In this document: in pieces, positions 2,073 through 4,767 of the stretch
How the letters are laid out: every line of letters begins with the position of its first letter
Numbering within the stretch: the stretch's first letter is position 1
Source: Candidatus Diapherotrites archaeon CG08_land_8_20_14_0_20_30_16
Lineage (GTDB): Archaea; Iainarchaeota; Iainarchaeia; Iainarchaeales; 0-14-0-20-30-16
NCBI GenBank assembly: GCA_002779075.1
Contig: PEXK01000004.1
Location: 1-8,205, forward strand
Direction of reading: 5' to 3'
Length of the DNA: 8,205 nucleotides
Notes under the pieces: model-generated
What the model was told of the DNA's origin: nothing
Database searches by the model: none
What the model saw: only the letters and a program-made list of their open reading frames with translations
Program-made: the position numbers and the translations under genes

Positions 2073-3101
2073 ATGCCTAATGAACCACGTAAAATACCTT
2101 TTAGAGATAAACTAAAAAAATGGGTTGAAATTCAAGGAAATCGTCTACTGGCTCATTCAGAATGTTTAGGAGCAGAAGATATTTCCAGAATTTTAAATCT
2201 AGTAAAAAGATTCGAAGATCCTGAAGTCAAAATAAAATTGTTTATAACATTAATTGAAAAACTAGAGAAATTTGAAGAAGTCAGCGAATATGTTAGCAGC
2301 TTAGGCAAATTGAAAGAGACTGTTGATTATTTAAAAGGAAATAGAATAATTAGTAGCTATCAATATATTTTATTTCTATGCGATATCGCTAGATTAGAAC
2401 ATAGAGTTACTTTACTGCAAGATTCAAAAGAAACATTAAACAAAGCAATAACAGCAGTAAAAGAATTCAAATTACCTGCAACAAGCGAAGCAATAAGAAA
2501 CTCTATTACTGACACACTTAATCTGAAAGTTTTAGAGCTATGTATTAAACTAGAATTAATTGATTCATCAGTAATTTTTTTATTTCGATTAATTGGAGAA
2601 AATAACACTGATCAAAAAATAATTGGATTGCAATTAGATAAATTAATGAATCATTTTAACGAAAGTATAAAACATTTAAAACCTCAAGATAAATTAAGTT
2701 GTCTAATGAAGCTTTATTCCTTTTTTGATAAAAACCTCGAAATGTTCCCAATTTACAAAGAACCTTTTGTATTACAAGTTGTAAATCTTATTTCAAGAAT
2801 TGATATAAATATTGCAGAGAGATTATTAGAAAGATGCAAAGTAAGTATTAAAAACTATTATGAAGCAAATGATAGCTTTGGAGTGGCTTATATTTCATTT
2901 ATGATAGCAAGAACAGAATTTTCTATGTTAGCTCATTTGGACCCCAAAAAACAAACAGAATATGTCAAAGATTTGAGAGCAAATCTTGCAAGAGCAAAAA
3001 GACAATTTACTGAAAGAAATATGAGAGATAACAGATTCGTTGATTTATCCAAAAATATAGAAAGATTTGGAAAGAAATTAGAAGTATTAAATAGTAACTA
3101 A
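2073..3101 (+). CDS. Hypothetical protein, predicted all-alpha / helical-repeat-like, no recognisable motif
   Basis: The long ORF is open from 1947. I prefer the ATG at 2073 (MPNEPRKIPF...) because a TATA-like TTTTATTA (2044-2051) is centred about -26, as for neighbouring genes. ATGs at 1947 and 2028 lack this and would add a low-complexity hydrophobic N-terminus. The stop is TAA at 3099-3101. No Walker, HUH or other catalytic signature was seen. Confidence 0.75.
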   Translation: MPNEPRKIPFRDKLKKWVEIQGNRLLAHSECLGAEDISRILNLVKRFEDPEVKIKLFITLIEKLEKFEEVSEYVSSLGKLKETVDYLKGNRIISSYQYILFLCDIARLEHRVTLLQDSKETLNKAITAVKEFKLPATSEAIRNSITDTLNLKVLELCIKLELIDSSVIFLFRLIGENNTDQKIIGLQLDKLMNHFNESIKHLKPQDKLSCLMKLYSFFDKNLEMFPIYKEPFVLQVVNLISRIDINIAERLLERCKVSIKNYYEANDSFGVAYISFMIARTEFSMLAHLDPKKQTEYVKDLRANLARAKRQFTERNMRDNRFVDLSKNIERFGKKLEVLNSN

Positions 3102-3107
3102 TCATAA

Positions 3108-3953
3108 TTATAATTTGTCTAAAGGGTTTTTTACTTTCTTTAGGTCTTCTGTGCTTATTTTAGTATATATCTGTGTTGTTGCAATACTAGCGTGTCCTAA
3201 TAAGGTCTGAATTGTTCTTAGGTTTTCACCTTGTTCTAACAGGTGTGTTGCCATCGTATGCCTAAGGCTGTGAGGGCTAATATGTTTTTTTATGCCTGCA
3301 AGCTTTGCAGATTCCTTTACAATCCTTTGAATTGTATCTGAACTAAATGGCTTGCCATTTAACTTGGCAAATACATATTCACTATTGTGTTTCTTGTTAT
3401 ATTTTTCTTTATATTTCTCATATTGGGCTAACCAATTCTTTGAAAGAATAACAATTCTATCTTTGTTTCCTTTGCCGCTTACCACTTTAGCAGTCTCTTC
3501 TGTGACGTTTAAAGAATCTGTTTTTAGACTACATAATTCTGACACCCTCAAACCAGATGAATAAAGAAGCTCCAATATTAATCTGTCTCTTGTGTCTTTG
3601 GTAACATCAAAAAGTGTTTTGACCTCCTCCTTAGTCAAAACATTGGGCAAATATTTCTCCTTTTTGGGCGATTTTAAATCATCAAGTATGTGGCTTTTCA
3701 GATAATCTTCATATAAGAATTTTAATACGAAGTAAATCAAAGACAAAGATGTGTTTTTCAGTGTTTGCTTCTTTTGGGCTAGATATTGAACCAAAAAGTC
3801 GTGAGTCTGCTGATTATCTAATTTCCAGCTTACAGAATTTCTGCTTGCATTGAGAATATAGTCTCTGATGTAAATCAAATATTGATCAATTGTTCTCTGA
3901 GTGTATCCTCTTATAATCAATTCATTTTTTATTTTTTGCAAATCCTCAAGCAT
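3108..3953 (-). CDS. xerA: Tyrosine site-specific recombinase, XerA/XerC/XerD-like
   Basis: The protein is 281 aa and the full catalytic signature is visible. It shows R in SSGLRVSEL, K in GKGNKDR, H-x-x-R in HSLRHT, H in LLGHAS and the nucleophile Y in TTQIYT. The N-terminal ~100 aa looks like a SAM-like core-binding domain. The size is typical of Xer rather than large phage integrases. Confidence 0.9.
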   Translation of the reverse strand: MLEDLQKIKNELIIRGYTQRTIDQYLIYIRDYILNASRNSVSWKLDNQQTHDFLVQYLAQKKQTLKNTSLSLIYFVLKFLYEDYLKSHILDDLKSPKKEKYLPNVLTKEEVKTLFDVTKDTRDRLILELLYSSGLRVSELCSLKTDSLNVTEETAKVVSGKGNKDRIVILSKNWLAQYEKYKEKYNKKHNSEYVFAKLNGKPFSSDTIQRIVKESAKLAGIKKHISPHSLRHTMATHLLEQGENLRTIQTLLGHASIATTQIYTKISTEDLKKVKNPLDKL

Positions 3954-3974: not shown

Positions 3975-3982
3975 TTTAAATT
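3975..3982 (-). promoter_or_regulatory. TATA-like box for the recombinase gene (leaderless geometry)
   Basis: The minus strand reads AATTTAAA at -29 to -22 relative to the ATG at 3953. Confidence 0.35.
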
Positions 3983-4006: not shown

Positions 4007-4028
4007 CATAAACCAACCATAAACCACC
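4007..4028. repeat. Tandem 11-bp direct repeat, two units (CATAAACCAAC / CATAAACCACC)
   Basis: Read directly from the sequence, 10/11 identical, with a period of one helical turn. It lies 54-75 nt upstream of the recombinase ATG. Confidence 0.8.
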
Positions 4029-4050
4029 CTTAGAACTATAGTTCTTAGGG
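4027..4050. promoter_or_regulatory. 24-bp imperfect palindrome CCCTTAGAAC-TATA-GTTCTTAGGG (candidate protein-binding site)
   Basis: Nine of 10 arm positions are complementary around a palindromic centre. It abuts the 11-bp tandem repeat, and the related motif TCTTAG recurs at 3996, 4043 and 4056. Confidence 0.5.
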
Positions 4051-4115
4051 ATTTGTCTTAGAATGAGCCAATAATTTAACTATAGGCAAAAAACCCGGAA
4101 ATTTCCTTCGTAATC

Positions 4116-4143
4116 TTACGGCATAATCCATATTATGCCGTAA
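4116..4143. other. dif-like Xer recombination site candidate: TTACGGCATAA-TCCATA-TTATGCCGTAA
   Basis: Two perfectly inverted 11-bp arms flank a 6-bp non-palindromic centre, totalling 28 bp. The inner 18 bp match E. coli dif (GGTGCGCATAA-TGTATA-TTATGTTAAAT) at 15/18 positions, including ATAA-N6-TTAT. It lies 163 nt upstream of the Xer-like gene. Confidence 0.55.
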
Positions 4144-4233: not shown

Positions 4234-4241
4234 GAATAAAC

Positions 4242-4278
4242 CCTCGCAGTATACAAAGATTTTCTGTCTAATGGGCTA
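4242..4278 (-). repeat. Copy C (partial, inverted) of the repeat family; overlaps the stop codon of the 123-aa gene
   Basis: The reverse complement TAGCCCATTAGACAGAAAATCTTTGTATACTGCGAGG matches 1589-1625 at 31/37 positions, including exact TAGACAG and TATACTGCGAGG. It lacks the right half (ATGTAACACTA) of copies A and B. Confidence 0.75.
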
Positions 4279-4647
4279 TTTTTCGACTTTTATAGATAAT
4301 TCTTTTTTATATTCTTTATCTATGTAATCGTAATCATTGTAGTGTTCGTATACCAAAAGGCGACCAGGATAATCTCTAGGGACTGATTGAGTCTTAGTGT
4401 AAATGTCCAAGTACAACAATTTTGTCTCTTTAGGCTCTATTAAACCAATCTTTTTCTCTAAAACGTTTGCTAAACCAGTTCTTTCAACACTTAGATCTCT
4501 ACTAACCATGAATTTCAATGAAACTTTCTTTGCTTCTTCAGAATTATTTGTTATCTCAGTTCTCAAAGAAATTGGCTTTCTTGAATTAATGGATAACCTA
4601 AAAGGTACTAAAACAGTTTTAATAACCAACATTAAACCACCTTGCAT
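4276..4647 (-). CDS. Hypothetical small protein, beta-rich (Ig/CARDB-like pattern), no recognisable motif
   Basis: The ORF is 123 aa. A TATA-like TTATATTA lies at -24 to -31 (plus 4671-4678). Alternating hydrophobic/polar strand-like segments are visible (ISLRTEITNNSEEAKKVSLKFMV). An alternative start exists at M6 (4632). Confidence 0.7.
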   Translation of the reverse strand: MQGGLMLVIKTVLVPFRLSINSRKPISLRTEITNNSEEAKKVSLKFMVSRDLSVERTGLANVLEKKIGLIEPKETKLLYLDIYTKTQSVPRDYPGRLLVYEHYNDYDYIDKEYKKELSIKVEK

Positions 4648-4718
4648 TATGTATATACTATAATATCTAATAATATAATACTAATAACAAATACATTGCC
4701 AAACATTTTTAAGCTTAT

Positions 4719-4767
4719 CACACTAAACATACTTATTTTATATGCTACGAGGATGTAACACTAGACA
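4719..4767 (+). repeat. Copy B of the ~48-bp repeat family, in the divergent spacer upstream of dtdA
   Basis: It matches copy A at 39/48 positions and shares the 16-mer at 4748-4763. The flanking 10-mers are ACACTAAACA (4720-4729) and ACACTAGACA (4758-4767). A local inverted repeat TATATGCTA / TAGACATATA (4739-4747 / 4762-4771) is also present. Confidence 0.85.

Follow-up and report, generated by a model that had tools for sequence, protein, structure and literature searches.

What is a perfect palindrome doing in the gap before a recombinase gene of an archaeon that belongs to the Iainarchaeia (Diapherotrites)? The stretch of DNA that was analysed, hereafter called the window, is 8,205 nucleotides long, and an earlier note on it had claimed a perfect 11-6-11 palindrome at positions 4116-4143, right next to a gene for an Xer-like recombinase. 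The palindrome is confirmed from the sequence: TTACGGCATAA-TCCATA-TTATGCCGTAA has two 11-bp arms (4116-4126 and 4133-4143) that are exact reverse complements of each other, placed around an asymmetric 6-bp centre (4127-4132), and a reading as a 12-bp stem closed by a loop of 4 nt is possible too. No other perfect short-range palindrome in the window is as long, and a scan of both window strands for a second copy of the 28-mer found none with 10 or fewer mismatches over the 28 bases. The site is located in a 322-bp intergenic gap that separates two minus-strand genes. Upstream of the gene for the 281-aa recombinase (3108-3953, minus strand), it leaves 163 bp between its xer-proximal end and the ATG, and it begins 132 nt past the stop codon of an ORF of 123 aa (4276-4647, minus strand).

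Symmetry of this kind can arise by chance in AT-rich DNA, and the window has a GC content of only 28%, with three occurrences of ATAA-N6-TTAT and 15 of TAA-N6-TTA. When the window was simulated 400 times with a first-order Markov model, arms of at least 11 bp with a spacer of 6 appeared in 7 of the simulations, and arms of at least 12 bp with any spacer from 0 to 12 in 20. The palindrome by itself is in other words modestly unlikely, being matched in about 2-5% of the simulated windows, and the 12-bp stem, which had been put forward as rare, is unusual but only moderately so. For this specific arm, which contains G+C, the chance of meeting its complement is about 0.0025 per window.

The neighbouring gene (3108-3953, minus strand) encodes a tyrosine recombinase with a Pfam Phage_integrase domain (8.5e-48) and an N-terminal SAM-like domain. 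The protein passes the NCBIfam equivalog NF040815 recomb_XerA_Arch with 233.8 bits against a cut-off of 220, and stays under the NCBIfam cut-offs for XerC, XerD, XerS and integron integrase. Its top solved relatives are the XerA of P. abyssi (4a8e, 2e-46) and that of T. acidophilum (5hxy), and R136, K161/K164, H228, R231, H254 and Y263 are all there and invariant in 14 homologues. The nearest database relatives belong to DPANN archaea, namely Candidatus Iainarchaeum and Diapherotrites. Since the equivalog cut-off is passed, the best solved relatives are archaeal XerA proteins and the catalytic residues are intact, the gene beside the palindrome is, as far as its sequence can tell, a true XerA, so that the earlier claim of an Xer-like recombinase holds in a more precise form.

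Several archaeal dif sites have been published, and they have the 11-6-11 form with an inner TAA-N6-TTA (PMC8371274, PMC11840125, PMC4640148), which is their most conserved feature (PMC11840125). Linked xerA/dif modules have been reported from some archaea (PMC5357621). The dif consensus of the Thermococcales, another archaeal group, is WTKDSMTATAA-TVDDYM-TTATATSHMAA, and its members include perfect palindromes with the centre TGTACC (PMC4640148). One of the Thermococcales sites, TTTTGATATAATGTACCTTATATGACAA of T. kodakarensis, is a XerA site confirmed by ChIP (PMC11840125). Conserved flanks surround the Thermococcales dif, which is not adjacent to xerA (PMC2958812). The site in the window agrees with their consensus at 7 of 11 positions in each arm and 5 of 6 in the centre, which is a partial fit as far as the arms are concerned. 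Like the XerA/dif systems of P. abyssi, T. kodakarensis and T. acidophilum, the locus combines one XerA with a 28-bp 11-6-11 site containing ATAA-N6-TTAT. It shares near-perfect dyad symmetry with the dif of Thermococcus sp. CL1 (TTTGGATATAA-TGTACC-TTATATCCAAA), and a conserved sequence flanking the core with Thermococcales dif in general. The arm is however another one (CGGCATAA here, GATATAA there), the site lies 0.13-2.2 kb from xerA whereas the Thermococcales dif is far from it, and the conserved flank is one-sided and contains G+C, in contrast to surroundings that are AT-rich on both sides in the Thermococcales.

The site has the 11-6-11 geometry of bacterial dif as well. In E. coli dif is GGTGCGCATAA-TGTATA-TTATGTTAAAT, and the count of 15 identical positions among the inner 18, taken with the E. 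coli sequence as the earlier note gave it, is correct. Bacterial dif has two different arms, for XerC and XerD, and is under the control of FtsK, whereas here there is only one recombinase, and the two arms are both similar to the one on the XerC side (GCATAA); archaea are, to our knowledge, without FtsK. That the recombinase gene and the site are neighbours is a likeness to XerS/difSL of streptococci. XerS belongs to a distant family, depends on FtsK and acts on an asymmetric site of 31 bp, unlike the identical arms found here. The linkage between xerA and the site is moreover a loose one, with varying distance and orientation, and it is lost in some related lineages.

For a comparison with related genomes we used contigs that encode the same protein together with stepwise more distant orthologues, and public collections were scanned for the core; the DNA read around each site amounts to 8-21 kb. 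The core CGGCATAA-N6-TTATGCCG, or a close variant of it, is found once per locus in relatives among the Iainarchaeia whose XerA identity goes down to about 49%. It is present in loci L201 and L166 (both 80% XerA identity), L007 (76%), L008 (69%), L199 (57%), L135 with L011 (56%; overlapping contigs that were counted together), L012 (54%) and L096 (51%), the last being a named Ca. Iainarchaeum MAG. Locus L009 (65%) has the core with one mismatch in an arm, and in L014 (49%) it reads CAGCACAA-N6-TTATGCTG, which includes a symmetric change from G-C to A-T. The inner 8-6-8 core is thus conserved in 12 related chromosomal loci and in one viral contig, and because of this conservation in the loci of related genomes a chance palindrome is ruled out. 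Absence of the palindrome near orthologous xer genes had been named beforehand as something that would speak against the dif-like reading; it was found near them in 11 further chromosomal lineages or strains.

The order of the neighbourhood is also kept, with a gene for D-aminoacyl-tRNA deacylase (DTD2), the gene for the small protein p118/p123 (4276-4647 in the window), the site, and xerA, and four of five low-GC metagenome matches to the core sit in p118-site-xerA synteny. A search of 138 kb of related loci, allowing 3-4 mismatches over the 16 arm positions, found no full sites beyond one per locus. The gene and its site were earlier expected to be kept next to each other, and this is true for six lineages with at least 65% XerA identity, where the distance is 130-163 bp, but in five others it is 0.7-2.2 kb, and around three XerA loci at 47-52% identity a search of 10 kb to each side found neither the site nor another candidate of 11-6-11 form. 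The linkage is therefore limited to one clade, since these three more distant loci are without the site.

An alignment of 14 sequences reveals where the site is free to vary. The inner eight bases of either arm, CGGCATAA in the left and TTATGCCG in the right, show no variation or a conservation of at least 90%, the outer three arm bases vary, often symmetrically in both arms, and the centre has no conservation apart from a tendency towards T...A (centres seen in other lineages are TCCTTA, TCATTA, TCTATA, TCTTTA, TGTACC and others). Arms that are symmetric and near-invariant around a free centre are what would be expected of a core bound by a recombinase homodimer, with the two arms as putative XerA half-sites and the centre as the presumed strand-exchange region. 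One of the centres, the TGTACC of L012 and L096, is the same as in the dif of T. kodakarensis and of Thermococcus sp. CL1 (PMC4640148, PMC11840125).

The architecture of the site, its true XerA neighbour and the pattern of variation all fit a dif-type site, and we find it likely that the palindrome is a XerA recombination site of this type, in a linked xerA/dif module of a DPANN archaeon within the Iainarchaeia (Diapherotrites). By homology with XerA/dif of P. abyssi, T. acidophilum and T. kodakarensis, one XerA monomer would bind each of the identical 11-bp arms, two sites on a chromosome dimer would synapse, and Y263 would cleave where the 6-bp centre meets the arms. With both arms the same, the alignment of the two sites would depend on the asymmetric centre alone. 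The presumed outcome is that XerA separates joined chromosome copies at the palindrome, i.e. dimer resolution.

The conservation extends beyond the core, and on one side only. On the side that faces xerA, the motif ACGAAGGAAAT (4101-4111, minus strand) is found 7 nt past the arm, and an exact or near-exact form of it accompanies the core in the viral contig and in nearly all lineages. Away from the cores, the 138 kb of related loci contain only scattered matches to it with 1-2 mismatches, none of them beside a core. An accessory factor probably binds to the flank, or else the flank shapes the DNA. It faces xerA in the lineages with at least 65% XerA identity and in L014, and in the group at 49-57% identity (L199, L135, L012 and L096) the whole unit of core and flank is inverted.

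The centre can also be flipped, independently of the flank motif, and this is seen in two independent comparisons. Read in the orientation of the flank, the centre is GGTACA in L012 (3506-3511) and TGTACC in L096 (2745-2750), which are exact reverse complements, and in the window it is TATGGA, from whose reverse complement the TCCTTA of the strain L001 differs by one change. The strain is 99.5% identical to the window, and the sole differences across the 322-bp intergenic region are the four middle bases of the centre, CCAT at window 4128-4131 and AAGG at L001:4942-4945. Another contig of the same species, L005, terminates at window 4127, precisely at the centre, a hint of a heterogeneous population. 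Template switching at the perfect hairpin may be the origin of the flips. A flip is tolerable for a XerA site because, with identical arms and no FtsK, only the identity of the two recombining copies matters.

Further half-sites are found in the surroundings of some cores. An exact half-site TTATGCCG is located 52 bp upstream of the core in L201 (3110-3117) and L166 (553-560), there are three near half-sites around the core in L045 (2274, 2418 and 2465), and L009 has a second 8-6-8 palindrome, GTAGATAA-TTAACG-TTATCTAC, at 2866-2887, 70 bp upstream of its core. They could be accessory sites, or remnants of a site that has been duplicated. This second L009 palindrome and a CTACATAA motif about 45 bp before the core are kept in some lineages only and are partly coding.

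The small protein encoded on the other side of the site (p123/p118; 4276-4647, minus strand) is syntenic with it in most lineages, its gene nearly always directly upstream of the site. Only 14 homologues of the protein were found, none of them with a Pfam domain, and it is restricted to the clade. The AlphaFold2 model (pLDDT 90.8) is an all-beta, Ig-like beta-sandwich with generic fold matches only. We considered the protein as an accessory DNA-binding factor, and rejected this on the grounds of the generic fold and the lack of any informative match. Between the site and xerA, the 49-57% group has a fast-evolving gene that is co-directional with xerA and whose product has a very basic N-terminus (L199:8354-9052; L012:3691-4922; L096 about 2120-2644, minus strand; L135:65-835, minus strand); such a gene is absent from the group of the window. 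The proteins L012-248 and L096-174 have a common C-terminal G[LI]I.WLSE, and at least these two look, from their sequences, like fast-evolving homologues and not like cargo. The alternative that the intervening genes are an integrated element was discarded, with no second or degenerate site at their far end in the related loci. The basic protein could be an operon partner of XerA, and with a site that precedes a two-gene co-directional unit ending in xerA the 49-57% group resembles the haloarchaea Haloferax and Halobacterium, in which a dif-like element is found upstream of the xerA operon (PMC11840125).

Such an arrangement brings up the possibility, suggested already in the earlier note, that the palindrome is an operator, to which a dimeric regulator or XerA itself binds and thereby controls the transcription of xerA or its operon, recombination not being the main role. 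The site is upstream of xerA in the window and in relatives with at least 65% XerA identity, in the 49-57% group it is upstream of a co-directional gene that abuts xerA and could precede an operon, and conserved arms with a variable spacer would also fit a dimeric DNA-binding protein. A TATA-like TTTAAA (3975-3980, minus strand) is however found 27 nt before the ATG of xerA, as in a proximal promoter of leaderless type, and this likely promoter, which we infer from its position, is about 135 bp away from the palindrome. The site is separated from xerA by anything between 130 bp and 2.2 kb, one sub-clade has the unit in inverted orientation, in L014 opposite-strand genes intervene, and L045 has the core but no xerA inside the 8-kb locus read. 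Core and flank are also found in a virus, beside its packaging genes, and an 11-6-11 site with ATAA-N6-TTAT has a form that is specific to dif. The variable distance and orientation, the intervening opposite-strand genes and the TTTAAA so near the ATG all disfavour autoregulation, and we regard an operator as quite unlikely.

A perfect stem of 12 bp downstream of p123 could also be thought of as an element of RNA, either the terminator hairpin of p123 or a small non-coding RNA made up of the hairpin and the flank. There are T-runs after the flank in several lineages, and the unit acts as a small independent module that can be inverted, which would both agree with this. No Rfam or tRNA match was found, however, and apart from the hairpin the region folds no better than shuffled sequences do (z = -1.29). 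What is kept in the stem is the sequence rather than pairing through compensatory changes, 5 of the 11 pairs never vary, and L009 and L014 have mismatches in mid-stem, while the loop is unconserved and the orientation flips. The site also persists where p118 is missing (L007) and where it is 1.2 kb away (L014). An RNA element is by this reckoning very unlikely, and the dif-type site remains the better reading of the hairpin.

The viral copy comes from a tailed-virus contig in IMG/VR (UViG_3300013137_000046; 38,339 bp, GC 0.23-0.26) that carries both core and flank in the form ATA-CGGCATAA-CTTACA-TTATGCCG-TAATATTACGAAG. The viral core (L216:4370-4391 and L157:538-559, which are the same contig) is about 1.1 kb upstream of the gene for the large terminase subunit, with packaging genes adjoining. 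The contig and several of the host loci were obtained from one sample series, and its centre, CTTACA, is unlike any centre among the hosts sampled. A second scan of viral sequences, with the arm-plus-flank pattern, gave only chance matches besides this contig. In a scan for relatives of Xer the contig, of which 5.7 kb were read, did not appear among the 80 viral loci retained. It could be that the tailed virus exploits or mimics the XerA site of its host, and as mobile elements exploit or mimic host recombination sites, a viral copy of core and flank supports that the palindrome is such a site.

It is tempting to go one step further and see the functional unit in the polar module as a whole, core plus ACGAAGGAAAT flank, which would be recognised in trans and of which a tailed virus would have taken a copy. 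The flips of the centre only and the inversion of the unit would in that case be footprints left in vivo by recombinase activity or by hairpin processing, and directional control, the part of FtsK in bacteria, would come from the one-sided flank. As an extension of the dif-type reading we hold this to be rather unlikely.

The scan of genome contigs for the core gave matches that, among those listed, are mostly bacterial and have the 8-6-8 core beside Xer-like recombinase genes. The bacterial cores, which come from hosts of high GC, are extended to e.g. CGATAT-CGGCATAA-N6-TTATGCCG-TAAGCC, with additional half-sites, and among the matches listed they flank one to three tandem genes for Xer-like tyrosine recombinases. 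In L190, three tandem recombinase genes are found between two inverted cores (135-156 and 3694-3715) that are 3.56 kb apart. These loci look like recombinase-in-trio (RIT) elements. A survey of RIT elements found no convincing repeats for recombinase binding at the ends, except for an inverted repeat of about 28 bp with an overlapping palindrome (PMC3414803). The presence of the 8-6-8 core in RIT-like elements means that CGGCATAA arms are a recognised type of substrate for Xer-like enzymes. The site of the window thus shares with the terminal palindromes of these elements the exact CGGCATAA-N6-TTATGCCG core next to Xer-like genes, and also extra half-sites (cf. L201, L166 and L045).

This likeness has to be weighed together with the suggestion that the palindrome is the site of a small cassette, that is, the attachment or resolution site of an integron-like, RIT-like or integrated element with its own recombinase. 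The identical 8-6-8 core flanks the bacterial RIT-like recombinase trios, a viral copy exists, and the NCBIfam product name of the XerA model mentions integron integrase. RIT elements are however mobile and multi-copy, occur in high-GC bacteria and enclose three recombinases within a pair of inverted sites spaced by about 3.5 kb, and neither the three tandem recombinases nor the two inverted ends are found in the window, where a lone recombinase and a lone site lie in a chromosomal context that is conserved, with no second site at 4 or fewer mismatches of 16 within 8-20 kb. The neighbourhood of GlyRS, DTD2, p118 and xerA is of a housekeeping kind and syntenic over 49-100% XerA identity. As for integrons, the recombinase reaches 183 with the model TIGR02249, whose cut-off is 265, with a match in two pieces, and neither the window nor the loci have attC-like arrays or repeated palindromic sites. 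With a single site that has no flanking partner, housekeeping synteny and a protein that is not an integron integrase, the cassette is a highly improbable explanation, and we return to the palindrome as a probable dif.

The type of system is already known, and the palindrome is a new example of it, unusual in a few details. Work on XerA/dif has concerned a few cultured archaea, and in the literature searched we found no description of it in DPANN archaea and none of an archaeal element that exploits Xer. If the palindrome is the dif of Iainarchaeia, it would be a sequence landmark, in genomes that are available from metagenomes only, for the place where chromosome dimers are resolved and perhaps also for the replication terminus. 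Within 16-20 kb around the sites, the local GC/AT skew tracks the gene strand; L014 has a peak of cumulative skew close to the locus, but a span of 20 kb is too short for the peak to be interpreted. The details of note are the polar flank motif, the recurrent flips of the centre and the viral copy. A perfectly symmetric substrate with a one-sided flank could be a tool for asking how a single-recombinase system without FtsK gets its directionality, and the viral copy is a lead to viruses that possibly use the Xer system of their hosts. If the polar module does turn out to be the functional unit, it would be the first case of an archaeal virus or mobile element that exploits or mimics XerA/dif, in the manner of bacterial IMEX.

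The intergenic DNA around the site has repeats of its own as well. An imperfect palindrome of 24 bp, CCCTTAGAACTA|TAGTTCTTAGGG, with 11 of 12 pairs, is located between the site and the start of xerA (window 4027-4050), and it is not conserved in L007 or L008. There is also a species-specific repeat family, CACACTAGACAG..TTTTATATACTGCGAGGATGTAACACTAAAC, with a core that resembles a TATA box, and it is absent from the same two orthologous loci. Its three copies in the window are at 1588-1639 and 4715-4766 on the plus strand and at 4237-4282 on the minus strand. The first and the last of these overlap the stop codon of the preceding gene, and the copy at 4715-4766 lies 57-108 bp before the start of DTD2. 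The repeat may be a promoter cassette, and its minus-strand copy points at the dif-like site and xerA.
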